NCBI GenBank assembly: GCA_964373915.1
Contig: CAYJWP010000001.1
Location: 51,860 to 115,859, forward strand
Direction of reading: 5' to 3'
Origin: an uncultured Candidatus Saccharibacteria bacterium
GTDB lineage: Bacteria; Patescibacteriota; Minisyncoccia; UBA6257; UBA11618
Length of the DNA stretch: 64,000 nt
A model generated the notes under the pieces. It did not search any database and was not told where the DNA came from. It was given only the letters and a program-made list of their open reading frames with translations. The translations under genes and the position numbers were made by a program. Of the stretch, positions 3,490 to 43,139 are shown one piece after another. Numbering within the stretch: the first letter of the stretch is position 1; every line of letters starts with the position of its first letter.

Positions 3490-3550
3490 ATTTATTATAA
3501 CACAATAGAATGGATTGTTATACCCCTGTTTTTATACTACAATTTTTTCT

Positions 3551-7799: not shown

Positions 7800-9239
7800 A
7801 TGGCGCTTTTAACGGCGGCGGGCATTTTTCTGCTTGTTGGAGCTTGGCTTTTAAATTCTTATACCGTTCAATCTCAAACCGAAGAGGAGCGGCTGATTAA
7901 TTCAATCAATTCCGCTATCAACGATCTCATTAATAATAGTGAAATAAGCCAAAAAATTAGGGATCTGGTCGGCAAGCCCACTGAAAACAAATCTTATTTT
8001 GATGATTACCTTCCTCCCCAGATATTTAATGACCTGATTAGCCATGGCCAAAAAGCTCAGGGTAGTTTTAGTATAATATTTGGCTTATTAAATGAAATTA
8101 GACAATTGTCTGGTAATTGCCAAACAGACGATGATAAAAAAAAGCTTATTAATAAAATTGAAGAACTCAACAACAACCTTTCTTTATTTATTGGTCATTT
8201 AACTAACTATCGCAAAGTTCTTGTGGAGGCGAGCTCCCTACTGGGCGATCCCGGTTTTTTTTCACCTTTTAAAAAGGGCTTTAAGGATAGGTTGAATCAA
8301 TCGGCTAGTGAATTAGGCCAAAGAATTACCGCTCTGCAAAAACGTCAAGCCGATCTTAATAGTCAAGTGCAATTGGGTAATCATATTAAATTAGCCGATA
8401 AATTATGTATAAAAAATGGCAATGGGCCTCCGCCTATTCCTCCGCCGGACAACGATATAAAAAATGAAGATGTCGCTGAGTGCGTTAAAGATTTTAACAA
8501 GCTTGCCGAATTAGCGAGAAAAATTTTATTCCACAGAACAACTCTTGACCAAAACACCTCAACTAATCTTAATTTTTTAATTACTAATCTGGAAGCCGCC
8601 GGCAGAAACTTCCCCTCACATTTTTCTTCATTACAGTCGGCTATTAATCGGCTAAATAAATTACTCTTATCGCCTTCTTTACGCCAAGTGGAAAAAAATG
8701 CTTTGGGGAGTTATTTAGCGTCTCTTAAACAATGCTTAAAAGTGACCAATGGAGAACAGCCTCCACCTCCTGCCGACAATGAAGATAGCGCCAGAATCAA
8801 AGAGTGCCACAAAAAGTACGACCGGCAATTGGTAGATTTTTTAGGGAAACTTCCCGCCTACTTTAGAATCCAGGCTCAAGAGCTAAAGAATAAGGCTGAT
8901 TCATTCCGGCAGGCCGCTTTTAAAGACCATAAAGATAGAATTAATCTGCTGGCGGACGGTCTTTTAAGTCTCGCTGACGAGATTGGGGGTTGGATTAAAG
9001 CTTGGGGAAGTAAGGTTCCTTTTAAAAATACCTACGAATTGATTGACGGCCTTATTGCCAAGTTTGAATACATTAAAGCCTACTATGAAGGCATAATAAA
9101 ATCTTTTCCTCTTCCTCCTAATCATCCTCAATCAATCGCTATGAAAAAGTATTATCAAAAAAAGATAGATTACGCCGATACAGTCATAAATGATCTTAAA
9201 AAATTAAAGGAAGACAAGCGAAAATGCGCCAACTGTTAG
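7800..9239 (+). CDS. hypothetical signal-anchored secreted protein, helical, with an internal duplicated Cys/Pro motif
   Basis: Start taken at ATG 7800 (MALLTAAGIFLLVGAWLL = TM/signal); the 7677 start is an ORF-caller extension. Duplicated module 'C..NG..PPP.PP.DN(D/E)...EC...'. Ends in 'KRKCANC'. Confidence 0.6.
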   Translation: MALLTAAGIFLLVGAWLLNSYTVQSQTEEERLINSINSAINDLINNSEISQKIRDLVGKPTENKSYFDDYLPPQIFNDLISHGQKAQGSFSIIFGLLNEIRQLSGNCQTDDDKKKLINKIEELNNNLSLFIGHLTNYRKVLVEASSLLGDPGFFSPFKKGFKDRLNQSASELGQRITALQKRQADLNSQVQLGNHIKLADKLCIKNGNGPPPIPPPDNDIKNEDVAECVKDFNKLAELARKILFHRTTLDQNTSTNLNFLITNLEAAGRNFPSHFSSLQSAINRLNKLLLSPSLRQVEKNALGSYLASLKQCLKVTNGEQPPPPADNEDSARIKECHKKYDRQLVDFLGKLPAYFRIQAQELKNKADSFRQAAFKDHKDRINLLADGLLSLADEIGGWIKAWGSKVPFKNTYELIDGLIAKFEYIKAYYEGIIKSFPLPPNHPQSIAMKKYYQKKIDYADTVINDLKKLKEDKRKCANC

Positions 9240-9262
9240 TTAACGTGTTATAATTAAAACAA

Positions 9263-10150
9263 GTGGATATTAAATTTTTAAAATGGTTTGCGGTAATCGT
9301 TGTTTTTGTTCTGGCTCTGACGGTGGCTTTTACAAATCTATCCGTTTTGGGACAAGGCGTACCCCGGCAAAATAAGTGCGTTTTGACAATACTTGAGGCG
9401 GTAAGCGTTCCTCCCGATCTCCAAAAATCCGAAGCAAAATTTCATATAAAATACGAGATAAAAAATCACAAAGACGAAGGCCTGTGGTCTATGCCTGCCA
9501 CAGAAATAAAATGGCCGAATATCATATCTCATTTCAAAAATAAATATCCGGATTGTGTTATAGACAATCAGGCGGCGACTGTCACCTATATTAAACCCAG
9601 AACAGGGCAAGATCCCCCCGACCCCCGTCACAGGGGCAATGTTATAATGAATTTTGATATTAAAGATCACAGGCCGGGGAAGAGAACTAGAAGAATTAGC
9701 ACTCCCGGAGGGCGGTCTTTAATTGATTTTTTAAATAAAGAATACCCGGGTTATACTATCAAACTTACCACTCCTGGCTTTAGAGGTCCGGCTTTAGCGC
9801 CTCCGGAAGATCAGGCGCCGGTTTGCCGCTCCATCGGCACCCTTTATACCAGCCCTAACTGGGAAAATGACCCCGACGTTTTTACCTGTCCCCCGTGCAG
9901 GCAATTAGAGAATGATTTAAATAGTTTTACTAAAAAGCTGATTGGAGATAATGCGGATCTTAGAGATTTGCTTGTAAAAACAGGCTTTGACTGGAAAAAA
10001 TTCGTTAACATCAAAATCGGGTTTCCTCCCGATGAACAAGGTATTCCCCATTTAAATGGTGTCAGCGATTCAGGAGTGATAGCATCTCAAATTAAAAAAG
10101 CTATGCAGGATTATATTGCAGAATTACGGCGGTGGAACACAAACAGATAA
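9263..10150 (+). CDS. hypothetical signal-anchored secreted protein (Cys-containing)
   Basis: N-terminal TM 'WFAVIVVFVLALTVAF'. Several Cys including 'FTCPPCRQLEN'. No recognisable domain. Confidence 0.55.
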   Translation: MDIKFLKWFAVIVVFVLALTVAFTNLSVLGQGVPRQNKCVLTILEAVSVPPDLQKSEAKFHIKYEIKNHKDEGLWSMPATEIKWPNIISHFKNKYPDCVIDNQAATVTYIKPRTGQDPPDPRHRGNVIMNFDIKDHRPGKRTRRISTPGGRSLIDFLNKEYPGYTIKLTTPGFRGPALAPPEDQAPVCRSIGTLYTSPNWENDPDVFTCPPCRQLENDLNSFTKKLIGDNADLRDLLVKTGFDWKKFVNIKIGFPPDEQGIPHLNGVSDSGVIASQIKKAMQDYIAELRRWNTNR

Positions 10151-10159
10151 AGAAAATAG

Positions 10160-11233
10160 ATGAGCAAAAATAATTTAAAATGGCTTGTAATTTTCGTGTC
10201 ATTGATTTTGGGGATGGCGATTGTTTTGCCTAAAACTAATTTTATTCTAGCCCAGTTTATTCCCAGTGGAACTATTGTCAGCCAAGAAAAAATACCCGGC
10301 ACTGACAATTATAAAGTAAAGATAGATTACGGCGGCATCACTATAGAAATAACGGCTTCGGCAAGAGAGTCGTCTAGGGAGTTTTTAGAAAACTTTTTAG
10401 GCGTCAAGTTAGTTGTTCCGCCAGCCTCTTCTCCGGAGCCAGTGCCCGCAAAGGATTGCCCGGAAACTTTTAAGATTGATTTAACCAATCGAATTAGGTT
10501 TGGGGTAAACGGAAAAAGAATTGACGAGGAAGTGGCTACATCAAATTTTCAATTATCACACGATAAAAATGACCATGAGGCCAGCCATGGCATCAATAGC
10601 ACGGCTCGCGCTATATACGCAGGCGTTCGTGAGGGTACCGGCGTGCATATTGGTTTTGACGAAAATGGCAAAGCCATTGTTACTTGGGTTGATGAGCCTA
10701 GGGGCAATATTTTGGGACTTATTGCTAGTAATGTTGTTCCCGATTTTTTTAAGAATCCGCCGGGTTTGATGAATCGTTACCGAACTTATTTAACAGGCGC
10801 CCGCCAGCGCAACATTGATGAAATCTCTAATTTGTTTGATGAATGGGGCGCTTACAATGCCGGAGGAGAAGCTCGTTTGAGAATGAGAATCAATGGGCAA
10901 AAAAAAGCTCTCGATGGAACGGATTTGAATCTGGCAAACATAATTGAGGGTCCGGCGGATTATATAATCATTGGTGGATCGGTTGCCCTTTATTTAAGAA
11001 ACAACGACCCAAGGTATTTTCAAAGCGCTCAATTTAAAAACTTTTTTAAATTCCAAATAGAAAAAAGCGCAACGCTTATCAATAAAGGCTTGGCAACCGG
11101 TGATATTTCTGATGCCGGCCATACTAATTTTATGTTAGATAATCTAAGAAAGAATCCCCAAGCGGCTAGGATTCGTCAAGTTTTAGTAGAACTTTACGGC
11201 CGCGACTGGACGCAAAGAGTCTTAGGTTTTTAA
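10160..11233 (+). CDS. hypothetical signal-anchored secreted protein
   Basis: N-terminal TM 'WLVIFVSLILGMAIVL'. 357 aa. No recognisable domain. Confidence 0.55.
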   Translation: MSKNNLKWLVIFVSLILGMAIVLPKTNFILAQFIPSGTIVSQEKIPGTDNYKVKIDYGGITIEITASARESSREFLENFLGVKLVVPPASSPEPVPAKDCPETFKIDLTNRIRFGVNGKRIDEEVATSNFQLSHDKNDHEASHGINSTARAIYAGVREGTGVHIGFDENGKAIVTWVDEPRGNILGLIASNVVPDFFKNPPGLMNRYRTYLTGARQRNIDEISNLFDEWGAYNAGGEARLRMRINGQKKALDGTDLNLANIIEGPADYIIIGGSVALYLRNNDPRYFQSAQFKNFFKFQIEKSATLINKGLATGDISDAGHTNFMLDNLRKNPQAARIRQVLVELYGRDWTQRVLGF

Positions 11234-11254
11234 AATTTATGTTAGCATAAACAT

Positions 11255-12397
11255 ATGCGGGAAAATAAAAAACATTTTTTATTTTTATTATTGCTTTTAG
11301 TAGCGTTCGTCTTAGTTTTATTTTTTATTTTATTTAGTTCCAAGTTACAGTTTTCTTATCAAGCCTTAAATGCAGCGCAAGAAGATCAAAATATATTAAG
11401 AGGAAGTCAATTTGTTAGCGTTGGCGACGGTTTAGGACAGGTTGTCAACGTTGTCAGGGGGGGCGGTGATCAATTTCCTAATGAATCTTACTATTGGCTA
11501 TACATTATTGCTCTATCACAATCATGCCAAAGGGAGGGGGGGTGGTTACCTTGGGTCTTTGGAGGAGGTAGCGGTTCTTCTTTAGAATCCAAACAACTCT
11601 TTGCAAGTATTTTTGATGTTCTATATAGTTTTTTTAATAAAACCAGTAAAGTTTTTGCTCTCCAGGGCGGCGGTTTTGGCCCCCCAGTTGTTGATCCACC
11701 CCCAGATCCGATTCCTATCCCGGCTCCTGCTCCATCTTCAAGAAGAGACATAATAACTATAGGAGTTGGTTTACAATATTGTTGGGGAGGAAGTGCTCCT
11801 ATTCGTCCATTTGTGGATTTTCTTTCGCGGACGGGAAGAAGGCTGTTGCCAATGATTATAGAAGTAGGGGGCAATCTTCGGTATTGGCCCATGGAGGGAA
11901 CTCGGGATGTAGCGTGGCTGGTCAAGCCAGTTGATTCATCAGCTGGCGCTGGGTTGAATATGATAATAGTTAGAGTTGACAAAAGCACACCAGTTAAATC
12001 ATCCAAACGTCCTGGATTTTTCCCAACACTGAAATCGGTAATACCTACCCCAGTTGATCCCCAAACGTTTGCTGATCCAGTAGGTGGTTCTATAACAATT
12101 AGGTTTCCTTTTGGAAAAAGAGATGGAGGTAGATATTTAGCAGAATTTAAGGAGCGTTGCGCTTTGGCTAATGAGCCACTTATAGAAAATGGCGTTGAAT
12201 ACTATAAACTGTCTAGTTTGCCAAATTTAAAAAAATACCGAATGAAAGACCTGCCAATAGGTAGTAAAGTTTACCAGAATGGAAAGGAGGTTGGCGTTTA
12301 TGTAGGCAACGGAAAAGTTTTACCATCCCGATACATTTTGCAGTTTTATAATGCTGTGGCAAAGCAAGTACCCAAGCCTCCTATTATTAGTAGATGA
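11255..12397 (+). CDS. hypothetical signal-anchored secreted protein with a Pro-rich linker
   Basis: N-terminal TM 'FLFLLLLLVAFVLVLFFILF', linker 'PPVVDPPPDPIPIPAPAPS', and a C-terminal 'VYQNGKEVGVYVGNGKVL' segment faintly reminiscent of NlpC/P60-type motifs (weak). Confidence 0.55.
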   Translation: MRENKKHFLFLLLLLVAFVLVLFFILFSSKLQFSYQALNAAQEDQNILRGSQFVSVGDGLGQVVNVVRGGGDQFPNESYYWLYIIALSQSCQREGGWLPWVFGGGSGSSLESKQLFASIFDVLYSFFNKTSKVFALQGGGFGPPVVDPPPDPIPIPAPAPSSRRDIITIGVGLQYCWGGSAPIRPFVDFLSRTGRRLLPMIIEVGGNLRYWPMEGTRDVAWLVKPVDSSAGAGLNMIIVRVDKSTPVKSSKRPGFFPTLKSVIPTPVDPQTFADPVGGSITIRFPFGKRDGGRYLAEFKERCALANEPLIENGVEYYKLSSLPNLKKYRMKDLPIGSKVYQNGKEVGVYVGNGKVLPSRYILQFYNAVAKQVPKPPIISR

Positions 12398-12660
12398 GGC
12401 TTGCTATCTCTTTAGTTACAATAATCAGTATAACCGTGATGGGCTTTCAGCTTTTCCGCCTTTATGGCCAGAAATCAAACTTAGAAAAAAAATTAGAAGC
12501 TATTAACTCCCAAATCAAGCCTTTAGTTGATGAAAATAAAAATGTTTTAGCCGACATCAATTATTTTCAGAATCCTAACAATCTTGAAAAAGAAGCGCGC
12601 GCGCAGTTAAACTATGTTCGGCCGGGAGAAAAGATGATTATCGTGATTCCTCAACCATGA
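12394..12660 (+). CDS. septum formation initiator family protein (FtsB/DivIC-like)
   Basis: 88 aa: TM helix, coiled coil, then 'EKEARAQLNYVRPGEKMIIV', the characteristic FtsB/DivIC C-terminal motif. Confidence 0.65.
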   Translation: MRLAISLVTIISITVMGFQLFRLYGQKSNLEKKLEAINSQIKPLVDENKNVLADINYFQNPNNLEKEARAQLNYVRPGEKMIIVIPQP

Positions 12661-13205
12661 AAAAGTTTTACGCGGCTTTTATTCTGATAATTCTTGCGGC
12701 GGCTGGTTTGGTTTTCCTTTTTCGCGCCGGTTGGCATCCTCTGGCTCTAGTTAACTCTCGCCTTGTCTGGGCGTGGCAATTTGAGAAAGAATATCAGTCG
12801 GCTCTCAAGTATTATGACAAACTTTCTTCTGTCTATAAGCTTCCCAAGCCGGAGGGGGATATAAAATTGGCAGTGCTTGATAAATTAATAGAAAAAATCA
12901 TAATATCAGAAAGTTTGAAAGATATATTTGGCGAAGAGGGCCAGGTATTAGTAAGCCAAAAAGTGTCAACTTCCTTAAAAAATACCAATCTAGAAGCCGC
13001 GGTTTCTTCGTTGCTTAGCATTGATTTTAAAGATTTTCAGGAAATGGTGCTTATCCCTCAAGCCGAAAAAGAGATAATTGAAGAAAAATTAAAAAGTGAA
13101 AGCCGCGACTTCTCTAATTGGCTGAAAAACAAAAAAAATCAGGCAAAAGTTTATCTTTTTACTAACGAATTTAATTGGATTAAAGGGGGGATAAATAGAA
13201 AGTAA
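12657..13205 (+). CDS. hypothetical membrane-anchored protein
   Basis: 182-aa ORF with an N-terminal TM helix. Translationally coupled to the upstream gene (ATGA overlap). Confidence 0.5.
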   Translation: MKKFYAAFILIILAAAGLVFLFRAGWHPLALVNSRLVWAWQFEKEYQSALKYYDKLSSVYKLPKPEGDIKLAVLDKLIEKIIISESLKDIFGEEGQVLVSQKVSTSLKNTNLEAAVSSLLSIDFKDFQEMVLIPQAEKEIIEEKLKSESRDFSNWLKNKKNQAKVYLFTNEFNWIKGGINRK

Positions 13206-13208
13206 CCG

Positions 13209-13282
13209 GCGAGATTAGTACAGTGGCAGTACGCTTGCTTCCCAAGCAAGAGACGCGAGTTCGATTCTCGTATCTCGCTCCA
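13209..13282 (+). tRNA. tRNA-Gly (anticodon CCC)
   Basis: Cloverleaf folded by hand. Acceptor GCGAGAT/ATCTCGC, D-arm GTAC-AGTGGCA-GTAC, anticodon loop TTCCCAA, T-arm GCGAG-TTCGATT-CTCGT, discriminator U, encoded CCA. Confidence 0.9.
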
Positions 13283-13285
13283 AGC

Positions 13286-13313
13286 AAAAGGGGGCTGACA
13301 GCCCCCTTTTTTT
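13286..13313 (+). terminator. rho-independent terminator after tRNA-Gly
   Basis: 'AAAGGGGGCTGACAGCCCCCTTTTTTT'. Confidence 0.75.
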
Positions 13314-13336
13314 GTGCTATAATTCAATCTATTCTA

Positions 13337-13408
13337 GCCGGAGTAGCTCAGTGGCAGAGCGGTGCTTTCGTAAAGCAAAGATCGCGAGTTCGATTCTCGC
13401 CTCCGGCT
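13337..13408 (+). tRNA. tRNA-Thr (anticodon CGT)
   Basis: Acceptor GCCGGAG/CTCCGGC, D-arm GCTC-AGTGGCA-GAGC, anticodon loop TTCGTAA, T-arm GCGAG-TTCGATT-CTCGC. CCA not encoded. Confidence 0.85.
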
Positions 13409-13435
13409 CAAAATTCCTACGGAATTTTGCAATAT

Positions 13436-14158
13436 ATGCGTCCACTATCAGATAAATACGACCAAAACAACGCCCATCTTTCTGTTCATGCCGGTGCTGG
13501 CGGAGACGATGCTAAGGATTGGGCCGGCATGCTTTTTAAAATGTATTTCAAATATGCCGGACGCAGGGGTTGGCAAACTATGGCGATTGATGATTTAACT
13601 ATGGATATCAAAGGAGATTATGCTTATGGAACTTTAAAAAAGGAAGCTGGCGTCCATCGGCTAGTGCGCATCTCTCCTTTTTCTACAAAAAAACTGCGCC
13701 ACACCTCATTTGCTTTAGTGGAAGTCCTGCCGGAGCTTCCGGAAATAGAAAGAAAAAAATTGGTTATCCCGGAAGATGATTTAAGGGTGGAAATGTTTCG
13801 CTCCAGCGGACCGGGCGGGCAAAATGTAAATAAGCGGGAAACCGCCGTCAGGGTCATCCACATGCCTAGCGGTTTGAGCGCCGCTTCGCAGGTAGAGCGC
13901 TCGCAAGCGCAAAATAAGGAAAAGGCGGTTAATCTGCTCAAAGCTCGCCTCATTAAGGTTATGGAGGAAAGGCGCATGCAGGAATTAAGTAATTTACAAA
14001 CTAAAATTGTGCCGGAGTGGGGTAGCCAGATTCGCTCTTATGTCCTGCACCCCTACAAGCAGGTTAAAGACCATCGCACCAAGGCTGTTAGCCACAATCC
14101 GGACAATGTTTTAGACGGTGACTTGGATAAGTTTATTGAATCGGAACTGGAAATTTGA
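13436..14158 (+). CDS. prfB: peptide chain release factor 2, N-terminally truncated (domains 2-4 only; domain 1 absent)
   Basis: 'HAGAGGDDAKDW', codon-recognition tripeptide 'SPF', 'SGPGGQNVNKRETAVRVIHMPSG' (GGQ), 'WGSQIRSYVLHPY'. The first ATG after tRNA-Thr sits about 15 aa before the 'HAGAGG' block. TTG 13427 is an alternative start. The 13223 ORF extension runs through the tRNAs and is spurious. Confidence 0.8.
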   Translation: MRPLSDKYDQNNAHLSVHAGAGGDDAKDWAGMLFKMYFKYAGRRGWQTMAIDDLTMDIKGDYAYGTLKKEAGVHRLVRISPFSTKKLRHTSFALVEVLPELPEIERKKLVIPEDDLRVEMFRSSGPGGQNVNKRETAVRVIHMPSGLSAASQVERSQAQNKEKAVNLLKARLIKVMEERRMQELSNLQTKIVPEWGSQIRSYVLHPYKQVKDHRTKAVSHNPDNVLDGDLDKFIESELEI

Positions 14159-14183
14159 TTATAATAAAACCTATTACCCCCCC

Positions 14184-14864
14184 ATGATAAATTTCATCAA
14201 TGTTTCTAAAGTCTACTCCAATAAATCCACTGCTCTAAATAATGTCAGTTTTAAGATAGACCCCAAGGAATTTGTAACCATTGTCGGTAAATCAGGGGCG
14301 GGTAAATCAACTATTATTAAACTTATTATTGGAGAAGAAAAACCTACCAGAGGCAAGGTTTTGTTTGCCAACCAGGAGGTGAATAAATTAACTTACAAAG
14401 AATTGCCTCTGTTAAGGAAAAGAATAGGTATTATTTTCCAAGACTTTCGCCTTTTACCGGCAAAAAATGCTCATGAGAATGTTGCTTTTGCGATGGAGGT
14501 CAGCGGTAAGTCGCAATTAGAAATTAATGAAGTAGTGCCTCAAATTTTAGATATGGTCGGATTGGGGGATAAAGCCGATCGCTTTCCCCATGAACTATCT
14601 GGAGGGGAGAGGCAGAGAGTGGCTATTGCTAGGGCGATGGTCAATCGGCCGGCGTTGATTATTGCCGATGAACCGACTGGCAATCTTGACCCAAGCAATA
14701 CGTGGGAGATAGTGGATATTCTCCTGAAAATTAATGAATTAGGCACCACGGTTATTCTAGCCACCCACAACAAGGATATTATTAACAACTTAGGCAGGCG
14801 CGTTATCAGCCTGGATGATGGTAAAATGATAAGAGACGAGAAAAAAGGCAGATATATTTTGTAA
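14184..14864 (+). CDS. ftsE: cell division ATP-binding protein FtsE
   Basis: ABC ATPase with Walker A 'GKSGAGKST', signature 'LSGGERQRVAIARA', and the FtsE-like 'MINFINVSKVY' N-terminus. Conserved prfB-ftsE-ftsX synteny. Confidence 0.9.
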   Translation: MINFINVSKVYSNKSTALNNVSFKIDPKEFVTIVGKSGAGKSTIIKLIIGEEKPTRGKVLFANQEVNKLTYKELPLLRKRIGIIFQDFRLLPAKNAHENVAFAMEVSGKSQLEINEVVPQILDMVGLGDKADRFPHELSGGERQRVAIARAMVNRPALIIADEPTGNLDPSNTWEIVDILLKINELGTTVILATHNKDIINNLGRRVISLDDGKMIRDEKKGRYIL

Positions 14865-15775
14865 TGGCCACTACTCTTTTTAGAATAATTAAATATGGCT
14901 GGCATAATTTTCGCCGCAATAGTTGGCTTTCTGTTGCCACTATTAGCATTTTACTTCTAACACTAATAGTTTTTCAGGGCTTGATTATTTTTCGGGTTAT
15001 CACTGGCGCGGCTATTGAAAGCTTAAAAGACAAAATAGATGTCAGTATATATTTTGCCACTGATGTTAGCGAGGAAAATATTTTAGAAATTCAAAAAAAG
15101 ATAGAGGTGCAAGACAAAGTTAAAAAAGTTGAATATATTTCCAGGGAAAAGGCTCTTGGAATATTTAAAGAAAAACATAAAGACGATCCCACTATTACTC
15201 AAGCTCTCCAAGAACTTGAGGACAATCCTCTTTCTGCCTCTTTAAATATTAAAGCCAACGAACCCAGCGATTACCCCGAGATCGCCTCGTTTTTAGACCA
15301 GCAAAAAAGCTGGCAGCCATTAATGGAAAAAGTTACTTATCGCCAAAACCAGCTGGTTATTGAGCGATTAGGCAAGATAGTGGATACCACCGAGAAATTA
15401 GGCTTAGCTTTGACTTTTTTCCTATCTTTAGCGGCTATTTTAGTAACTTTCAACACTATAAGCTTAGCTATCTACTCTAATCGTGAAGAAGTTAAAATTA
15501 TGCGATTAGTCGGCTCTTCTAACAGGTTAATAGTTGGCCCTTTTATAGTAACTGGCATTATCTACAGCGCCATCGCGGCCGTTTTAAGCCAGCTGATTAT
15601 CTGGCCCGTGGTTGTCACCACTTCTCCCTATCTCAAATTTTTTCTTTCAGAAACCGATTTAGCCTCCTATTACATGGATAATTTTTGGAAGCTTTTAGCC
15701 TACCAACTTTTATTTGGAGCTATTCTTGGCGCCGTCTCTGGCAAAATAGCTATTAGAAGGTATTTAAAAACTTAG
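14864..15775 (+). CDS. ftsX: cell division permease FtsX
   Basis: FtsX topology: TM1, large periplasmic loop, three C-terminal TMs. Immediately downstream of ftsE. Confidence 0.85.
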   Translation: MATTLFRIIKYGWHNFRRNSWLSVATISILLLTLIVFQGLIIFRVITGAAIESLKDKIDVSIYFATDVSEENILEIQKKIEVQDKVKKVEYISREKALGIFKEKHKDDPTITQALQELEDNPLSASLNIKANEPSDYPEIASFLDQQKSWQPLMEKVTYRQNQLVIERLGKIVDTTEKLGLALTFFLSLAAILVTFNTISLAIYSNREEVKIMRLVGSSNRLIVGPFIVTGIIYSAIAAVLSQLIIWPVVVTTSPYLKFFLSETDLASYYMDNFWKLLAYQLLFGAILGAVSGKIAIRRYLKT

Positions 15776-15795
15776 TTGGAGCAAGTTGGTATTAA

Positions 15796-17238
15796 CTAAA
15801 ACCAACCCAGCAGGAATTGAGCTACCAACCCTAAAAATTCTTTTGATTCTATTCTCTTTGATTGAGGTTGTTGCAACTGCATCTGTAATTCTATAGAACG
15901 GAAATCTATATTTTCAGGAATTAATGACCTGAATTGTTCCGGTATTTGTGTAGGCGCTCCTTCAAGCAGGAAATTATTTAATCCTTCAAGGCTGGGCGGA
16001 GGAGGCCCCTGATAGTCCTTATCCGGAAATGAGTCTTGTCTTCCCGGAAACTCTTCCTGTCTGCTCGGGAAAGACCTGTCTTCTAAGCCCGGCGGCGTAA
16101 AATCAGCAAAACAACCTCGCATAATTTCCGGCATTTTAGTCCTCATTTCGAAAGGATTAAAATCAGGGCTATTCAGCAACTCTTCCAGTTTGGGCCCGAC
16201 GCACTCTGTAATCCCCGGCGGAGCATTTCCAGTTTCTTCATTAATCCGGCGGCGCACCTCCTCTTTTATTCGTCCACTTTCTCCTTTGGGGATGATTTTA
16301 TTAAAATTAAAATCTGGATTTTCTTTTTTAATCTCCTCAAAGAATTGTTCCGCTAATTCCGGCTTTGCATCAAAAACTTTTTCGCACTCCTGCCGGTTGC
16401 GACAACCTGTTTTTTCTTTGATTTTACGGGCAAACCGCGCTTCTTCTTGGCCGATAATCCCGTGCTCTATAGCAAAGGCGAAACAGACTTCCTCGTTGGC
16501 CGGATTGTCACAGTGTTTTTCACAAGCCCTTCCCCGACAACCTCCGGGACCCACTCCGCCGGTCTTTTTGACGATGCTGGCCTCTTGTTCTGTCATAAAA
16601 CCGGCGGCCACGCCGAACTTTATGCACTCATCCATTCTCTCCGGTTTAAAATCTCCGCCATCCGGCCCGCCGGCGCCAAAACAATAAGTCTCGCACTCCT
16701 CTTTATTGCGGCAACTGCCGGGAGTTTTAACGCCTCTTGCTAGAGCATCCCTGATTTTTTTCGCCTCTTCTAACTCTTGCCTGTCCATCACGTCATACTT
16801 TTCAGCGTAAGCCACACACTCATTAATATTGGCGACATCATCACAATAAGCGCGGCATTCATCAAAGCCTTGGCATCCGCCCGGCCCAGCGCCGCCTCTT
16901 AGCGATTGCGATAATTTCTCTACCTCGCTAGCCTCCTTGTTAGCGATAGGCCCCTCTAATAAGTTGTGTTTTTTAGCGAAAGCAAAACAAGCGGCAAAAT
17001 TATCGGGCTGGTCGCAATATAATCGGCACTCCTTTTCATTTTTACAGCCGCCTAATTCCTCTACGGGATAAACAATATCGTCCTTGGTGGCGGCTCCTGC
17101 CAGCGGCAACATCAGGAACAGAAAAAACAAAACTGCTAAAGTCGTAATAATTTTATTGTCCAGCTTATTACTCAAAGGGATTTTGATAAGTGTTTGAAAA
17201 TGGATTGGCTTTTTCCACCGGATTGACATCTTGGACAT
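15796..17238 (-). CDS. secreted cysteine-rich tandem-repeat protein (five C-x5/6-C-x3-C-x7/9-C modules) with a Pro-rich C-terminus
   Basis: Signal/TM 'IITTLAVLFFLFLMLPLAGAA'. Repeats 'GGCKNEKECRLYCDQPDNFAACFAFAKKH', 'GGCQGFDECRAYCDDVANINECVAYAEKY', 'GSCRNKEECETYCFGAGG...', 'GGCRGRACEKHCDNPANEEVCFAFAIEHG', 'TGCRNRQECEKVF'. Confidence 0.6.
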   Translation of the reverse strand: MSKMSIRWKKPIHFQTLIKIPLSNKLDNKIITTLAVLFFLFLMLPLAGAATKDDIVYPVEELGGCKNEKECRLYCDQPDNFAACFAFAKKHNLLEGPIANKEASEVEKLSQSLRGGAGPGGCQGFDECRAYCDDVANINECVAYAEKYDVMDRQELEEAKKIRDALARGVKTPGSCRNKEECETYCFGAGGPDGGDFKPERMDECIKFGVAAGFMTEQEASIVKKTGGVGPGGCRGRACEKHCDNPANEEVCFAFAIEHGIIGQEEARFARKIKEKTGCRNRQECEKVFDAKPELAEQFFEEIKKENPDFNFNKIIPKGESGRIKEEVRRRINEETGNAPPGITECVGPKLEELLNSPDFNPFEMRTKMPEIMRGCFADFTPPGLEDRSFPSRQEEFPGRQDSFPDKDYQGPPPPSLEGLNNFLLEGAPTQIPEQFRSLIPENIDFRSIELQMQLQQPQSKRIESKEFLGLVAQFLLGWF

Positions 17239-17416
17239 CTCCCAGGGGATTAATCGCCTTAATATCTACCCTAACGCCAAAATCTTCCGCTTTGGGAATT
17301 AACTCCGGCGCTAGTTGCGGAGTTGTTCCCGAATATGGCTGTTTAAAGACATAAAAAAACAAGAATCCCAATAACAACAAAACAGCAATAGCAATCCAAA
17401 GATAATATTGCTTCAT
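17168..17416 (-). CDS. possible small membrane protein (82 aa); overlaps the downstream gene start by 71 nt
   Basis: N-terminal TM 'LWIAIAVLLLLGFLFFYVF'. The overlap and lack of a recognisable RBS lower confidence. Confidence 0.3.
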   Translation of the reverse strand: MKQYYLWIAIAVLLLLGFLFFYVFKQPYSGTTPQLAPELIPKAEDFGVRVDIKAINPLGDVQDVNPVEKANPFSNTYQNPFE

Positions 17417-17452
17417 TAGCTTTTATTATATAGTATCCCTTTAAATTTTACT

Positions 17453-18592
17453 GTGGATAAGTTTGCTCGGTACGACATCTTTTTTTACGGAGTGGCAATG
17501 TTTCTAGCCGGAGTTTTGCTTTCTAGTTTAGGCATAAGTTTTTGGATTATTGCCGGCCTGGTAATTTTTTTAGCTTTAGCTTCCCGAATGTCATCTTTAA
17601 GCCCGTTGCTGATATTAGTTTTAGCCGGCTCTCTTTATTACTCATGGCGCATCTCTATGCCTCTGGAAATCTCTTTTGGCAAAGAAATTTTTGGATGGCT
17701 TTTAAACATTAAAGAGGGGATTATTGAGGCGCATCGGCGGCTCTTAGGCTCGGAGCAAGCGGCTTTTTTATCCGGCATTACCATCGGCCATCGTTATGGA
17801 TTTTCTCAAAATTTTCTGGAACGGCTTTCTTTAAGCGGCACCCGCCACGTAGTAGTGCTTTCGGGCTCTAATCTTACAATTCTCATTCTTATAATTATGC
17901 GGCTCCGCAGCTCTTTTCTTTCAAAAAAGTTTGCTTTTGCCCTTTCTTTTTTAACCGTTCTGGCCCTTGTGGCTATGACCGGCTTTGAAGTTTCCGCCGT
18001 GCGCGCCTCCTTAATGGCTTTTGTTTTCGGTATAGCCACTCAAAGCGAGCGCCTTTACAGCCCCCGTAATTCTATAGCTCTGGCAGGTTTAATTTTAATT
18101 CTCGTCAATCCTCAAAACCTTGTTTTTGATATCGGCTTCCAGCTTTCCTTTATGGCTATTCTTGGAGTAGCCTATATTTTACCTGCTTTAAAAAACGCTC
18201 TGCGGATAAAAACTTTTGGCGGGCTTGATTGGCGTGAAGCGGCCCTTGGAACAATCGCCGCCCAAACAGCAGTCGCGCCTATTTTAATCGCTAACTTCTC
18301 TAACTTCACTTTGACATCCTTTATCGCTAACGCTCTTATTTTGGCGGTGGTGCCGCCAACAATGATTGTTGGTTTTATTCTGGCGCTAGCCTACTGGCTG
18401 TTTTATCCGGCGGCGATTGTTTTAAGCTGGCTGGCGTCTTTCTTGCTCGGTTATCAGATTTTTGTTATAAATATTTTTTCTCGGATTTATCTGCCCTTTA
18501 ATCCTGATTTAGGATTTTTAGGAATCGCTATTTATTACGCCGTTGTTTTTATTTTTATCGCCAAGTTTTATGGAAAAAGAGCCGAATTATAA
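17453..18592 (+). CDS. comEC: ComEC/Rec2 DNA-internalization competence protein, membrane competence domain
   Basis: Multi-TM protein. 'LSGITIGHRYGFSQNFLERLSLSGTRHVVVLSGSNLTIL' matches the ComEC competence-domain signature. Confidence 0.8.
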   Translation: MDKFARYDIFFYGVAMFLAGVLLSSLGISFWIIAGLVIFLALASRMSSLSPLLILVLAGSLYYSWRISMPLEISFGKEIFGWLLNIKEGIIEAHRRLLGSEQAAFLSGITIGHRYGFSQNFLERLSLSGTRHVVVLSGSNLTILILIIMRLRSSFLSKKFAFALSFLTVLALVAMTGFEVSAVRASLMAFVFGIATQSERLYSPRNSIALAGLILILVNPQNLVFDIGFQLSFMAILGVAYILPALKNALRIKTFGGLDWREAALGTIAAQTAVAPILIANFSNFTLTSFIANALILAVVPPTMIVGFILALAYWLFYPAAIVLSWLASFLLGYQIFVINIFSRIYLPFNPDLGFLGIAIYYAVVFIFIAKFYGKRAEL

Positions 18593-22567: not shown

Positions 22568-22595
22568 TTGAACAAAGAGACATTAAGCGTAAAAT
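22568..22595 (+). promoter_or_regulatory. sigma70-like promoter (TTGAAC-16-TAAAAT)
   Basis: Hexamers about 40 nt upstream of a strong SD 'AAAGGAGGGTGA' and the ATG at 22634. Confidence 0.5.
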
Positions 22596-22633
22596 TAAAT
22601 CGGCATCTTATTTTTAATAAAGGAGGGTGATTT

Positions 22634-22888
22634 ATGAATGGTAACGATTTCAACTGGATGTTGAGGCAGATTTTAGATGAATTAAGAAAATATATCAGCT
22701 CTCCGGCAGTCATTGCTTTTACCTTGCAGAAAAAGCGCTGGCTCTATCCCACCGCTGGCTTTCAGGTGAGCATTATTGACTGCTTATTGCTTTACGGCCG
22801 AGGTGGCTTTGACAGTGTTAAAGTGAAATTGCCGGAAATTATTAAAGAAAGCCAAAAATACCAAGAGCACATTTTAAATAATCATTAA
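22634..22888 (+). CDS. hypothetical small protein (84 aa)
   Basis: Strong SD 'AAAGGAGGGTGATTT' immediately before the ATG. Followed by the hairpin terminator at 22889-22918. Confidence 0.5.
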   Translation: MNGNDFNWMLRQILDELRKYISSPAVIAFTLQKKRWLYPTAGFQVSIIDCLLLYGRGGFDSVKVKLPEIIKESQKYQEHILNNH

Positions 22889-22918
22889 AAACCCCCGAGT
22901 CTGACTAGGGGGCTTTAA
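22889..22918 (+). terminator. rho-independent terminator
   Basis: 'CCCCCGAGTCTGACTAGGGGGCTTTAATT'. Confidence 0.6.
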
Positions 22919-22992
22919 TTACTGGATAAATATAGTTATTAGTGTTATAAGTATCTATTGAAAAGCACCTTAACATATAAAAAGGAGGGTGA

Positions 22993-23826
22993 ATGTCCAA
23001 GATTAATCTGATTAACGCTAAAGAGTATGATTACACAGTCACTCAATTGAGAAAATTTTTCAGGGACAGGAGATTTATTGAGGTGGGCGTCCAGCACCGG
23101 CTAAGCATTTTGGCGGCCTGCGAAGACCCGCGGACTATCGGCACTTACAATTATGCCGGCCAGCTTTGGCCCTTGCCTCAGACCGGCCAGATGTGGCTGG
23201 AATACGAATTACTTAACTGGCCTGACGCCGCTGGCTATTATTGCGTCAGCACCAGCTATCGGCAGGAGCCTAATCCCGTTCCGGGCAGGCATGATCTAGT
23301 GTTCCCGATGTTTGAATTTGAAACCCACGGCAATATGGATGATTTAATCCGGCTGGAAATGGATTTGTTGGAACATCTGGCATTTGGTTCGGCAAGCAAT
23401 TACGCTGTCAGAGAATACAGCGAACTGGCCCAGCGGTATGGAGTTAAAGAATTAGGCATCAAAGAAGAAGAAGCGCTGGGCAAGGATTATGGGCCGGTCT
23501 GTTTTGCCACGAAGTTTCCCCTCTATACCTCGCCTTTTTGGAATATGAAAAAATCCGGCGGCTACGCCAATAAAGTTGACGTCATGCTCTACGGCGTGGA
23601 AACAATCGGTTCGGCAGAACGAAGCACGAATCCGACAGAAATGAGAGATTTATTTCATACCATCAGCGACGGCATGTACGCCGACATTCTTTATTCGCAA
23701 TTCAGCAAGAAAAGGGTGGAGGAGGAGCTGGAATCATTTTTGGCTCTCAATATGATTCCCCGTTGCGGCGGCGGAATCGGAATTACCAGAATGATTCGGG
23801 CTCTGAAACTAGCCAAGAAACTCTAA
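22993..23826 (+). CDS. stand-alone class II aminoacyl-tRNA-synthetase-like catalytic core (archaeal-type asparagine synthetase A / AsnRS-paralog-like)
   Basis: Motif 1-like 'LRKFFRDRRFIEVGVQ', motif 2-like 'YRQEPNPVPGRHDLVFPMFEFE', 'SPFWNMKK', motif 3 'RCGGGIGITRMIRAL'. No anticodon-binding domain. 277 aa. Near-identical SD context to the upstream small ORF ('AAAGGAGGGTGA'). Confidence 0.7.
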   Translation: MSKINLINAKEYDYTVTQLRKFFRDRRFIEVGVQHRLSILAACEDPRTIGTYNYAGQLWPLPQTGQMWLEYELLNWPDAAGYYCVSTSYRQEPNPVPGRHDLVFPMFEFETHGNMDDLIRLEMDLLEHLAFGSASNYAVREYSELAQRYGVKELGIKEEEALGKDYGPVCFATKFPLYTSPFWNMKKSGGYANKVDVMLYGVETIGSAERSTNPTEMRDLFHTISDGMYADILYSQFSKKRVEEELESFLALNMIPRCGGGIGITRMIRALKLAKKL

Positions 23827-23839
23827 TAAATATCAACGG

Positions 23840-23866
23840 AAAACCCCGACGCTGTCGGGGTTTTTT
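23840..23866. terminator. bidirectional rho-independent terminator
   Basis: 'AAAACCCCGACGCTGTCGGGGTTTTTT'. The T-tract overlaps the stop codon of the convergent minus-strand gene. Confidence 0.75.
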
Positions 23867-24152
23867 AAAGGCCAACCTTATCTTTAATACGCTTGATGTC
23901 TTTCTGCATCTCAGCAACCTCCGCTTTTAAGTCAGGATAACAAGCTACCCTGTCTTCTATGCCATCAAGTCGATAGTTAATAGAAATAATCTCTTTTCTT
24001 ATTTCTTTTACTTCTGCTCTTATTTCTTTTACTTCTGCTCTTATTTCTTTAACCCCCCCCTCTATTTTATCAAGTCTTTTATTGGTAACAGAAAACTCAC
24101 TCTGAATCATTATTGCTAAACCATTAATTGTCATGCCTTTATTTTTTATCAT
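23865..24152 (-). CDS. small coiled-coil protein with in-frame 21-bp tandem repeats (heptad 'AEVKEIR' x ~3) and a G8 homopolymer
   Basis: 'EIRAEVKEIRAEVKEIRKEI' encoded by 2.5 copies of 'CTTATTTCTTTTACTTCTGCT' (23998-24050). A C8 run on the plus strand at 24053-24060 encodes 'GGV'. Confidence 0.5.
   Translation of the reverse strand: MIKNKGMTINGLAIMIQSEFSVTNKRLDKIEGGVKEIRAEVKEIRAEVKEIRKEIISINYRLDGIEDRVACYPDLKAEVAEMQKDIKRIKDKVGL
23998..24050. repeat. 21-bp tandem repeat, about 2.5 copies, inside a CDS
   Basis: Direct repeat visible in the sequence. Confidence 0.8.
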
Positions 24153-37524: not shown

Positions 37525-38220
37525 ATGCCTTACGATAAAATATTAGATTTAGTAGAATCTAAACAGCTGGACATTACCGCTGTCAGCTTATCAGAGATTA
37601 CCAGCGATTTTTTGGACTATGTGCGTAATTTGAGGGAGCCGGCCAGCCGGCGCAGCGATCCTCATGTTTTAGCTGATTTTGTGGCTGTGGCCGCCAAACT
37701 ACTACTCATCAAATCCAAGGCTCTCTTGCCCTCTATCCAACTTTCCCAGGAAGAAGAGTCTGATATTAAAGAATTAGAGGAGCGTTTGAAAATTTACCAG
37801 CGGTTTCGATTAGCCAGCCATCACCTTAAAAATATTCTTGAGACAGAAAACCGCTCTTTTGCCCGACCGTATCTTATTGGTAGCGGCGTTCTTTTTCGCC
37901 CGCCAAAAAAGATTGCCGCCATCCAACTATGGCAGAGCGTAACTTTAGCGGCAGAAAAAATAGGCAGAGACATCGGTAACTGGCAAAAAAATCAGGAGTT
38001 GGTGAAAATTAAAATAATTTCCATAGAAACCAAGATTAAAGAGTTGATGGTCAAATTCACCCAATCGTTAAAAAGCCGAAAGTTCAGCCAACTGATTAAA
38101 GACCGCACCAAAAGTGAGATGGTTGTTGTTTTTTTGGCCGTCCTCCACCTATTAAAAGAAAATAAAGTGACCATCAGCCAACAGAGGCCTTTCCAAGAAA
38201 TTTATGTTGAAAGAGTTTAA
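37525..38220 (+). CDS. scpA: segregation and condensation protein A
   Basis: Typical ScpA length and N-terminus 'ILDLVESKQLDITAVSLSEITSDFLDYV'. Followed by scpB. Confidence 0.85.
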   Translation: MPYDKILDLVESKQLDITAVSLSEITSDFLDYVRNLREPASRRSDPHVLADFVAVAAKLLLIKSKALLPSIQLSQEEESDIKELEERLKIYQRFRLASHHLKNILETENRSFARPYLIGSGVLFRPPKKIAAIQLWQSVTLAAEKIGRDIGNWQKNQELVKIKIISIETKIKELMVKFTQSLKSRKFSQLIKDRTKSEMVVVFLAVLHLLKENKVTISQQRPFQEIYVERV

Positions 38221-38725
38221 TAAGGAAAATCTATCAGCCCAAATAGAAAGCCTGCTTTTTATTCATGGCGAGCCTTTGAAAATCAGCCAGCTGGCTGAAA
38301 TTCTTGAAACCGACGAGGCGGCTATTATAAAAGCCGCTTATGCAATAGTTGAAGAATTAAAAAAGGCAGAAAGGGGGTTAATTCTAATTAATGCCGGTGG
38401 CTCTCTGCAGTTAGCAACCAAACCGGAGCTTGCCCCACTAGTCAAAAAATTCGCTCAAAAAGAATTGGGATCGGAGCTGACACCGGCCGCTTTAGAAACA
38501 ATATCCATTGTGGCTTATACTGGTCCCATTTCCAAAGAAAAAATAGAATTCGTCAGAGGGGTTAACTCTTCTTACACTATAAGAAATCTTCTGGTACGCG
38601 GCCTAATAACTCAAAATAAAAATCTTTTTGAGGTAAGCGCGGATCTCTTACGCAACTTGGGTCTAACCGATATCAGTCAACTGCCAGATTATGAAAAGTA
38701 TAAAAATTTGGCCCAACGGGAATGA
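38204..38725 (+). CDS. scpB: segregation and condensation protein B
   Basis: Winged-helix ScpB 'IESLLFIHGEPLKISQLAEIL'. Overlaps scpA. Confidence 0.85.
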   Translation: MLKEFNKENLSAQIESLLFIHGEPLKISQLAEILETDEAAIIKAAYAIVEELKKAERGLILINAGGSLQLATKPELAPLVKKFAQKELGSELTPAALETISIVAYTGPISKEKIEFVRGVNSSYTIRNLLVRGLITQNKNLFEVSADLLRNLGLTDISQLPDYEKYKNLAQRE

Positions 38726-39543
38726 ACTCCAGATTTTTTTTATTTTCTTTAGCCTTGGTGGCTATAATTCTTATCAGCAACAATCCCCGAGATGGCAGCA
38801 GGGAGATTCTTACTAACAAGCAGATACAAGCCACTAGTGTCAGAGCCGAGTACCAGACGCCAGAACCCCGACAATTGATTGCCAGCATTCCGGATCCACC
38901 CATAGATCTTCACCTTCAATCTGCCTCAGTTAAAAATCTCGGTACTAATTTTTATTTCCTGGAAATTAATACCGACCAGCAATGGCCCATAGCTTCTCTG
39001 ACTAAATTATTAACAGCGGTGGTAGCTCTAGAAAATAAAGAGGCTGACATCCAGGTAATCGATGGGCTGGTGAAGATGATGATGATTATTTCTAGCAACA
39101 AAGCGGCGGAGCGGCTAGCGAGTCTAAAAAATCGGGAGGAGTTCATCCAAAAAATGCAGGCAAAAGCAGTTGATTTGGCTATGAACCACACTGGTATTTT
39201 TGACCCAACCGGTCTATCATTTCTTAATCAATCCACCGTCCGAGACCTGGAAAAATTGATTGGCTATATCATTAAAAACCATCCCAAAATTCTGCAATTC
39301 AGCCGAGAAAAAGAAATAGACGTCAATGGACAAAAAATAGCAAATATCAATCGTTTTGCGGGCCAAAGTAATTTTATGGGGGGCAAAACCGGCTACACCG
39401 ATGAAGCCAGCGGCAACCTTATTTCTATTTTCCAATACCAGGGACAACCGATGCTGATAATCGTTTTGGGAACAACTGACAAATTGGAGCGCTTTGCGCA
39501 GACGGAAAAACTCTTCCAATGGATTTCCAAATTTTACAATTAG
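38722..39543 (+). CDS. D-alanyl-D-alanine carboxypeptidase (peptidase S11, PBP5-like)
   Basis: 'SLTKLLT' (SxxK), 'SSN', 'KTG' motifs. Signal peptide. Confidence 0.8.
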   Translation: MNSRFFLFSLALVAIILISNNPRDGSREILTNKQIQATSVRAEYQTPEPRQLIASIPDPPIDLHLQSASVKNLGTNFYFLEINTDQQWPIASLTKLLTAVVALENKEADIQVIDGLVKMMMIISSNKAAERLASLKNREEFIQKMQAKAVDLAMNHTGIFDPTGLSFLNQSTVRDLEKLIGYIIKNHPKILQFSREKEIDVNGQKIANINRFAGQSNFMGGKTGYTDEASGNLISIFQYQGQPMLIIVLGTTDKLERFAQTEKLFQWISKFYN

Positions 39544-40571: not shown

Positions 40572-40580
40572 AATTCACTT

Positions 40581-43129: not shown

Positions 43130-43139
43130 TATAAAACCC

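Follow-up and report, generated by a model that had tools for sequence, protein, structure and literature searches.

The 277-aa protein encoded at positions 22993 to 23826 (+) of the window, the 64-kb stretch of DNA analyzed here, belongs to a compact, strongly conserved and uncharacterized family, labeled FAM in the following, whose genes are repeatedly located beside pyrimidine genes or fused to them. This linkage is a new finding, which the sequence-only reading of the same DNA had missed, and it is the most informative evidence on the function of FAM. Because of it, the role of FAM in tiny CPR bacteria may be an otherwise missing early step of pyrimidine synthesis and not just the production of asparagine. 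The best reading, resting on guilt by association and given a probability of roughly 40%, is that FAM acts as an adenylating ligase of the AsnA type, closing the dihydroorotate ring or feeding it.

ORF, domain and homolog evidence identified the FAM gene as encoding a stand-alone class IIb aminoacyl-tRNA synthetase (aaRS)-like catalytic core. Class II motifs 1 to 3 are all intact in the translation of 22993 to 23826 (+), in which the motif strings FFRDRRFIEVGV (residues 22 to 33), YRQEPNPVPGRHDLVFPMFEFE (residues 89 to 110) and GGGIGITRMIRAL (residues 259 to 271), as well as PFW and LYGVETIGSAERS, were located. The protein matched Pfam PF00152 (class II D/K/N core) over residues 16 to 271 with 49.8 bits (cut-off, 25). 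The Pfam scan of the 277-aa protein gave no match to the OB-fold/anticodon domain (PF01336), whereas both the core and PF01336 were detected in the true AspRS of the window. The earlier description of a protein with class II motifs 1 to 3 but no anticodon-binding domain is thus confirmed. Motifs 1, 2 and 3, including the arginines of motifs 2 and 3, place FAM among the subclass IIb cores of the class II aaRS superfamily, whose catalytic fold is built on an antiparallel sheet.

In the protein of the window, the residues for catalysis (Arg and Glu) and for Mg binding are retained. Among 116 family members, 88 columns are conserved to at least 95%, and the window protein agrees with the consensus at every one of them, indicating that the gene is not a pseudogene. 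All residues that bind ATP and Mg or activate the carboxylate are invariant in the same 116 members. A truncated asnS or aspS pseudogene, which the sequence-only reading had named as a refuting outcome, was ruled out by these matches and by the fact that full-length members, about 280 aa long, number in the thousands. FAM is almost certainly an active ligase, stand-alone and of class IIb, that represents a new family; as far as its sequence tells, its catalytic apparatus for adenylate formation is intact and derives from an AsnRS-like core.

The family comprises at least 8,000 sequences and 402 species representatives from many phyla. A single-sequence search of 1.8 billion proteins yielded just 635 clusters at 50% identity, indicating that FAM is well separated from true AsnRS. 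No curated family model for FAM was found in NCBIfam, nor in Pfam beyond PF00152, and no paper describing the family was found. FAM proteins are sometimes labeled "transposase" in public records.

The nearest relatives of FAM are AsnRS cores and the archaeal AS-AR, in agreement with the AsnA/AsnRS-core likeness noticed in the sequence-only reading, and for this reason AsnA-type chemistry is a fair lead. In comparison with the AsnRS core of the archaeal/eukaryal type (PDB 1X54, 2XTI and 8TC8), FAM lacks the N-terminal OB-fold anticodon domain, is only about 19 to 21% identical and is found in the context of pyrimidine synthesis, not of translation. The asnS models of NCBIfam were absent among the FAM hits at an E value of ≤1. 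Alignment with E. coli AsnS by hhalign gave a probability of 15%, although single E. coli references are too weak for placement. AS-AR ("AsnRS2" of Pyrococcus abyssi; PDB 3P8T) is, like FAM, a stand-alone AsnRS-like core without an anticodon domain, but the similarity is marginal (17.4 to 17.6 bits, E value of about 0.02; PDB profile E value, 0.017), and FAM scored 12.7 bits with the AS-AR model (NCBIfam NF005055 and its siblings), for which the cut-off is 389. FAM also differs from AS-AR in being bacterial (CPR/FCB) and in being linked to genes for an amidohydrolase and an ArgH-like lyase as well as to pyr genes. Bacterial AsnA (PDB 11AS/12AS) likewise has a class II core and no tRNA domain, and motif 3 of the E. 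coli enzyme, GGGIG..R, is nearly identical to that of FAM; however, FAM did not fall within the bacterial AsnA family and does not have its alpha-carboxylate Lys/Arg pair.

The linkage is to PyrD, PyrE and PyrF, which catalyze the late part of the de novo pyrimidine pathway, and it includes two independent fusions, PyrD-FAM and FAM-PyrF. A total of 7 contigs, representing at least 3 samples, carry the PyrD-FAM fusion; the gene for the FAM-PyrF fusion adjoins pyrE and pyrD. In Bacteroidota loci, PyrD is followed by FAM on the same strand, divergent from PyrEF, with a gap between PyrD and FAM of 90 to 269 nt in 5 loci. Unannotated ORFs located between PyrD and FAM in Bacteroidota were considered as analogues of the CPR module described below, but they proved to be MBL-fold and TIR insertions, and the idea was rejected. 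Clustering or fusion with pyr genes thus occurs across unrelated lineages. In the tree, the linked copies are spread and intermixed with the unlinked ones, the copy in the window being among them; the latter is 63 to 65% identical to pyr-linked copies at three loci (L012, L013 and L015).

The CPR loci have the layout [PyrE-(PyrD)-AmidoH-ArgH-like]-FAM, in which AmidoH is a cytosine-deaminase-like amidohydrolase (NF005365). At two loci (L145 and L146), the order is PyrD-PyrE-PyrF-ArgH-like-FAM-AmidoH, and the stop codon of FAM overlaps the start codon of AmidoH. The amidohydrolase and the ArgH-like gene are paired in 69 of 80 amidohydrolase loci; PyrD, PyrE or PyrF accompanies the amidohydrolase in about 28 of the 80, and PyrD in 22. 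Most PyrDEF-ArgH-like-AmidoH operons have no FAM within 10 kb. Of 76 species loci, 16 have pyrimidine or module genes no more than 10 kb from FAM, and about 80% of the FAM loci have no pyr neighbor. The module amidohydrolase is represented by 1,834 sequences, and FAM, with at least 8,000, appears to be far more common, indicating that the role of FAM cannot depend on that module. No pyrD, pyrE, pyrF, Dus, amidohydrolase or ArgH-like gene was found within the 64-kb window, and CarB was absent both from the FAM loci (1.25 Mb) and from the 80 amidohydrolase loci. At one locus (L032), the neighbors of FAM are a canonical PyrB and a PyrC-like gene whose catalytic motifs, DxHxH and DHAP, are preserved, indicating that FAM is not a simple PyrC replacement there; a strict replacement of PyrC by FAM is weakened by this co-occurrence with PyrB and an apparently active PyrC.

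In the window, FAM is its own transcription unit with a strong Shine-Dalgarno (SD) sequence and a strong terminator. The SD sequence AAAGGAGGGTGA is located directly 5' of the FAM ATG (22981 to 22992, +), and the identical 12-mer (22619 to 22630, +) precedes the ATG of an 84-aa ORF (22634 to 22888, +) of uncertain coding status. The repetition of the SD sequence noticed earlier is therefore exact, at 12 of 12 nt, and the two copies are the only ones in the 64 kb. With up to one mismatch allowed, the expected count is 0.44, and 2 copies were reached in 8 of 100 shuffles. Downstream, a strong bidirectional intrinsic terminator hairpin with an A-tract, stem and T-tract (23838 to 23866, both strands; −18.4 and −16.6 kcal/mol, z scores of −3.6 and −4.6) is common to FAM and a convergent 95-aa ORF. 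The hairpin terminator proposed between the 84-aa ORF and FAM exists as a hairpin (22892 to 22912, +), but a modest one (−11.5 kcal/mol, z score of −1.7), which may be a weak terminator or attenuator. Similarly, the hexamers of the proposed promoter are present (sigma-70-like TTGAAC-16-TAAAAT, 22568 to 22595, +), but their 9-of-12 match to the consensus is no better than chance, and such sites are no more common in the window than in shuffles (7 versus 4.7 ± 2.1). Searches upstream of FAM, in the window and at 10 representative loci, gave no T-box, PyrR site or riboswitch.

The proposed chemistry begins with the beta-carboxylate of an N-substituted aspartate, which FAM would adenylate with ATP, as in AsnA and AS-AR. 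A nitrogen nucleophile would then form the amide; with an intramolecular acceptor nitrogen, the product would be the dihydroorotate ring (N3-C4 bond), oxidized next by PyrD. In Bacteroidota, the substrate would be N-carbamoyl-L-aspartate. PyrC dihydroorotase would be the functional analogue, forming the same proposed product, L-dihydroorotate for PyrD, and the gene position beside or fused with PyrD is occupied by FAM. The fold of PyrC, an amidohydrolase TIM barrel, is unrelated, and its reaction is ATP independent and reversible, whereas that of FAM would be ATP driven. FAM probably works in pyrimidine synthesis or feeds it, to judge from its gene neighbors; the same association points only tentatively to ring closure as the specific step. 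Speaking against an N-substituted substrate, the residues Q63, T64, Q66 and E92, with which class IIb enzymes hold a free alpha-amino group, are kept in FAM; their retention suits a plain amino acid, for example Asp or Asn, no less well than a substituted one.

In CPR bacteria, an ArgH-like enzyme working in reverse could form argininosuccinate from arginine and fumarate. FAM would then close the ring, and the amidohydrolase would hydrolyze the C2-N bond, releasing ornithine; alternatively, the amidohydrolase could act before FAM, giving carbamoyl-aspartate. Together with PyrD, PyrE and PyrF, which would convert the resulting L-dihydroorotate to UMP, this sequence of reactions would replace CarAB, PyrB and PyrC. 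That FAM, the ArgH-like lyase and the cytosine-deaminase-like amidohydrolase constitute such an unrecognized dihydroorotate route without carbamoyl phosphate is improbable as a complete proposal. If true, it would explain the pyrimidine pathways that have been reported as "incomplete" in surveys of CPR bacteria. Formation of dihydroorotate from Asn and CO2 via the amidohydrolase was set aside on a rough thermodynamic estimate of about +20 kJ/mol. Literature searches on a link between aaRS paralogs and pyrimidines, on CPR pyrimidine routes and on argininosuccinate-to-dihydroorotate chemistry returned nothing relevant.

The main rival is an asparagine synthetase of the AS-AR/AsnA type, in which the beta-carboxylate of free aspartate is adenylated and then amidated by ammonia or, in a variant, by aspartate as the nitrogen donor, with fumarate subsequently removed by the ArgH-like lyase. 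Such an enzyme would be the only route of these small-genome bacteria to free Asn, and the pyr linkage would reflect a shared aspartate supply or co-regulation. PyrD and PyrF fusions and tight PyrD-FAM operons in unrelated phyla would be unexpected for an asparagine synthetase, and the low score of FAM with the AS-AR model also speaks against this explanation, which is rather unlikely. Neither the window nor the FAM loci yielded an asnS, and GatC and GatA are located near the amidohydrolase-ArgH-like pair in one related lineage (where FAM was not seen), indicating that tRNA-dependent amidation exists in the group. No GatA, GatB or AsnB was found among the 18 larger ORFs of the window that were scanned, and the link to Asn-tRNA formation suggested earlier was not established. 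In a second rival explanation, FAM would be a noncatalytic or allosteric partner of a pyrimidine enzyme, sensing an amino acid or nucleotide and regulating PyrD, PyrE or PyrF in the way the HisRS paralog HisZ works with HisG. HisZ has lost the ATP-, Mg- and carboxylate-activating residues; their invariance in FAM argues for catalysis, and FAM mostly occurs without a pyr gene beside it, making an allosteric role very unlikely.

A role in translation is scarcely credible, whether FAM is taken as a minimal AsnRS or AspRS that charges tRNA although it lacks the anticodon domain or as an EpmA-like enzyme that aminoacylates EF-P or another protein. EpmA/PoxA/GenX, the EF-P beta-lysyl transferase (PDB 3A5Y), is derived from LysRS and has a Lys pocket, whereas the pocket of FAM is Asn-like, and FAM scored far below the cut-offs of the EpmA models (15.5 versus 286.9 bits for TIGR00462 and 17.4 versus 264 bits for NF006828). 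In the 1.25 Mb of FAM loci, no EpmB was found, and a single locus (L017) has EF-P within 10 kb of FAM, at a distance of about 6 kb; in the window, EF-P is about 22 kb from FAM. FAM is also present in free-living Bacteroidota with normal translation machinery, and there is no T-box or other leader upstream. The EF-P/tRNA-modifying alternative of the sequence-only reading was consequently rejected on its low model scores and lack of genomic linkage. Finally, the 84-aa ORF might encode a carrier-protein-like acceptor aminoacylated by FAM, as in amino acid:carrier-protein ligases, given that the two genes are adjacent with identical SD sequences and that GGFDSV in the 84-aa protein loosely resembles a phosphopantetheine attachment site. 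However, a search of 5.8 billion proteins returned one other homolog (two in total), which does not adjoin a FAM gene, and no Pfam or NCBIfam match was found. A hairpin separates the two genes, and the known amino acid:carrier-protein ligases are SerRS-like, not class IIb. The 84-aa ORF is therefore a lineage-specific orphan and not a conserved partner of FAM; the chance that it is a carrier protein is negligible.

AsnA, AS-AR, EpmA and HisZ are stand-alone aaRS cores with new jobs, classic cases of enzyme recruitment, to which FAM would add a further, very widespread one. If FAM is an asparagine synthetase, it would represent a third independent AsnA-like lineage, and its linkage to pyr operons would still need explaining. 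A dihydroorotate ring closed or fed by FAM would mean that a nonhomologous, ATP-driven variant of early pyrimidine synthesis exists. In that case, many Patescibacteria scored as incapable of pyrimidine synthesis may make pyrimidines, and views of their dependence on hosts would change.

The window gene at 22993-23826(+) encodes a 277-aa protein, a stand-alone class IIb aaRS-like core whose family is here called FAM. Pfam gave PF00152, the class II D/K/N catalytic core, as the only domain (residues 16-271, 49.8 bits against a cut-off of 25), and the OB-fold was absent, bearing out the sequence-only reading that the protein has no anticodon-binding domain. For contrast, both the catalytic core and the OB-fold anticodon domain were detected in the AspRS of the window (3515-4945(+)). 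The initial observation is confirmed in other respects as well: the positions of this gene and of the 84-aa ORF upstream (22634-22888(+)) were correct, all the quoted motif strings were found in the translation, and the repeated Shine-Dalgarno context corresponds to a 12-mer, AAAGGAGGGTGA, with exactly two copies in 64 kb, one before the start codon of each ORF. The hairpin described as a terminator between the two ORFs is present but modest (-11.5 kcal/mol, z -1.7). The hexamers of the proposed promoter (22568-22595) are also present, but sites of this kind do not exceed the frequency seen in shuffled sequence. No T-box, PyrR site or riboswitch was found upstream of FAM in the window or in 10 other loci.

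A strong bidirectional terminator (23838-23866, -18.4 kcal/mol, z -3.6) lies 3' of the FAM gene, which is ordinary in anatomy, a single gene predicted to be well expressed. The terminator is shared with a convergent 95-aa ORF (23865-24152(-)), which is coiled-coil-like, carries an internal tandem repeat, EIRAEVKEIRAEVKEIRKE, and gave weak matches only, to archaeal SMC-related and arcadin models. The other neighbors are a thioredoxin-like lipoprotein, Obg, a 120-aa ORF and the 84-aa ORF, neither ORF having a family match. Among 5.8 billion proteins, the 84-aa ORF retrieved itself and one copy at 73% identity, on a contig without a FAM gene. It is an orphan and not a conserved partner of the family.

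The 64-kb window encodes DnaX, SerRS, LysRS, GluRS, EF-P and a bacterial-type AspRS, together with tRNAs for Gly, Thr and Gln (two copies). The AspRS matched NF001750 at 637 bits in two separate stretches; since it has 476 aa against a 590-aa profile, it lacks the insertion domain of about 110 aa. The window showed no asnS, and GatA, GatB and AsnB were not among the 18 larger ORFs scanned. PyrD, PyrE, PyrF, Dus, the NF005365 amidohydrolase and the ArgH-like lyase discussed below were likewise not found in the window. A 477-aa amidohydrolase-family protein (40581-42014(+)), part of a seven-gene same-strand cluster (37525-44231), matched dihydroorotase, allantoinase and isoaspartyl-dipeptidase models only weakly and in part, and is unrelated to NF005365.

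Every curated equivalog was missed by a wide margin: nondiscriminating AspRS (20.2 bits; cut-off, 368), LysRS (14.1; 468), archaeal asparagine synthetase A (12.7; 389) and the EpmA models NF006828 (17.4; 264) and TIGR00462 (genX; 15.5; 286.9), the last two scores arguing against an EF-P-modifying paralog. Across 116 members, 88 columns are conserved at 95% or more, and the window copy agrees with every one of them, which rules out a decayed asnS or aspS. In a 38-sequence alignment, 81 columns are invariant, including all catalytic motif residues. At least 8,000 sequences match FAM, the best 120 listed being mostly 271 to 315 aa long at 62 to 71% identity. Searching 1.84 billion cluster representatives without filters returned only 635 clusters (172 below 1e-30), indicating that the family is compact and clearly set apart from true synthetases. 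Source names vary among "amino acid--tRNA ligase-related protein," "tRNA ligase," "aspartyl/asparaginyl-tRNA synthetase" and "transposase." The last, on public records from Kaiserbacteria and Yanofskybacteria (P0037, P0053 and P0060), is a propagated misannotation.

FAM was detected in 402 species representatives at 55 to 66% identity, including Patescibacteria, Bacteroidota (Aureispira, Chitinophagales, Weeksellaceae), Alpha- and Gammaproteobacteria, Dependentiae, Bdellovibrionales, WOR-3 and one Pacearchaeota MAG. Loci from Pacearchaeota, a DPANN archaeon (L049), Alphaproteobacteria (L018, L022, L029, L069) and Acidimicrobiaceae (L077) carry it at 55 to 64% identity. The scattered distribution points to horizontal transfer, with MAG contamination as a possible alternative. 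Many of the scattered hosts are predatory, parasitic or symbiotic.

All ORFs within 10 kb on either side of 76 FAM loci were clustered without prior bias, and the recurrent ones were annotated. Pyrimidine or module genes occurred in 16 loci, the module being an ArgH-like lyase (329 bits; argH cut-off, 279.5) paired with a cytosine-deaminase-like amidohydrolase that matches NF005365, a "hypothetical protein" model. In the small-genome CPR bacteria, the backbone order is SerRS-x-Dus-FAM-DnaX, and in several genomes a PyrE-(PyrD)-amidohydrolase-ArgH-like block is inserted directly upstream of FAM. A 158-aa ORF without a Pfam or NCBIfam match, between PyrD and the amidohydrolase in L013/L002 (2978-3454), could be an additional pathway component. 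The ClpP/trigger-factor slot of Nomurabacteria holds FAM alone, FAM-ArgH-like-amidohydrolase or PyrDEF-ArgH-like-amidohydrolase. Bacteroidota show PyrEF(-)/PyrD class 1A(+)-FAM(+), with a PyrD-FAM gap of 90 to 269 nt in five loci; in three Weeksellaceae/Flavobacteriia loci (L067, L072, L083), a same-strand gene resembling PEP carboxykinase, another oxaloacetate/aspartate-node enzyme, takes the place of PyrD immediately upstream of FAM. FAM adjoins PyrE in Dependentiae, and in L032 a canonical PyrB and a PyrC-like gene lie about 600 nt away. Two fusions were found: a 661-aa PyrD-FAM protein beside a PyrEF gene (seven contigs, several samples) and a 588-aa FAM-PyrF protein beside PyrE and PyrD. 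CarB, E. coli-type PyrC and AsnA were absent from 1.25 Mb of FAM loci. In a neighbor-joining tree, pyr-linked FAMs are spread over at least five distinct clades, side by side with unlinked ones and with the window protein among them, so that the family looks like one orthologous group and not a specialized subfamily.

The NF005365 amidohydrolase is itself highly conserved in CPR (1,834 matches, 73 to 86% identity). Among 80 metagenome loci fetched around it, the ArgH-like gene was also present in 69, PyrD, PyrE or PyrF occurred in about 28 (PyrD in 22), FAM in 4, and CarA or CarB in none. L145 and L146 read PyrD-PyrE-PyrF-ArgH-like-FAM-amidohydrolase, with the FAM stop overlapping the amidohydrolase start. 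The L182 operon (9989-17586) combines amidohydrolase-ArgH-like with PyrC-PyrD-PyrE-PyrF-PyrB, without FAM or CarAB, so that this unusual pair may stand in for the carbamoyl-phosphate supply and not for PyrB or PyrC. Near relatives of the L013 lineage (L100-L103, about 12380-13732; L108; L110) have amidohydrolase-ArgH-like followed by a 93-aa ORF and, roughly at FAM's position in L013, a 304-aa aspartokinase-like protein without ACT domains, with DapF next door. This protein may activate a beta-carboxyl group in FAM's stead, or it may just belong to the neighboring DAP pathway. L101 also carries a second, diverged NF005365 paralog (8778-9737(-), 118 bits), divergently upstream of the main copy.

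FAM retains an intact ATP/Mg/carboxylate-activating site, has no tRNA-binding domain and has an AsnRS/AS-AR-like pocket. Comparison with FAM gave values of 26.2 to 26.4 for AsnRS cores, 24.1 for archaeal asparagine synthetase A (AS-AR, 3P8T), 23.5 for EpmA, 23.2 for yeast AspRS, 22.3 for LysRS and 20.9 for bacterial AsnA. AsnRS QSSQLYLE aligns with FAM QTGQMWLE in the HMM alignment, and AspRS carries Lys-Gln in place of this Leu-Glu. The GSAER arginine is retained, and its ER pair is common to FAM and AS-AR. These residues suggest a pocket that would accommodate an amide or ureido group and not a free side-chain carboxylate.

Dihydroorotate is formally asparagine with a carbonyl bridging the alpha-N and amide-N. 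By AsnA/AS-AR-type chemistry, FAM would adenylate the beta-carboxylate of an aspartate moiety for attack by nitrogen; with N-carbamoyl-aspartate as the substrate, this would close the N3-C4 bond and pass dihydroorotate to PyrD. We put the probability of FAM closing or feeding the dihydroorotate ring at about 0.4. In CPR, the ArgH-like lyase, in reverse, would form argininosuccinate from arginine and fumarate, FAM would cyclize it, and the deaminase-like (cytosine/isocytosine) hydrolase would cut the exocyclic C2-N bond, yielding ornithine and dihydroorotate. The six-membered argininosuccinate anhydride is classically described as a spontaneous product, and each enzyme can perform the usual reaction of its own family. 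This full three-enzyme arginine route is a hypothesis, not a result, and rather unlikely. Against a pyrimidine role, most FAM loci, including the window, lack a pyr neighbor; FAM is commoner than the amidohydrolase and absent nearby in most PyrDEF-ArgH-like-amidohydrolase operons; the PyrC of L032 is apparently active (DxHxH and DHAP retained); and FAM keeps alpha-amino-binding residues. For these reasons the main rival is an asparagine synthetase, a third AsnA-like lineage, for which AS-AR is an exact architectural precedent; we consider it somewhat less probable than the dihydroorotate reading.

A full-text literature search turned up no account of FAM, no aaRS paralog acting in pyrimidine synthesis and no route from arginine to dihydroorotate. 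A review of aaRS duplications includes AS-A and PoxA and nothing resembling FAM, and CPR surveys call the pyrimidine pathways incomplete. FAM is a further kind of stand-alone aaRS-core paralog, and its family is very large, very conserved, widespread and uncharacterized. Its unexpected tie to pyrimidine synthesis is the main new result. PyrD, the proposed recipient of dihydroorotate, is one of the two enzymes found fused to FAM.
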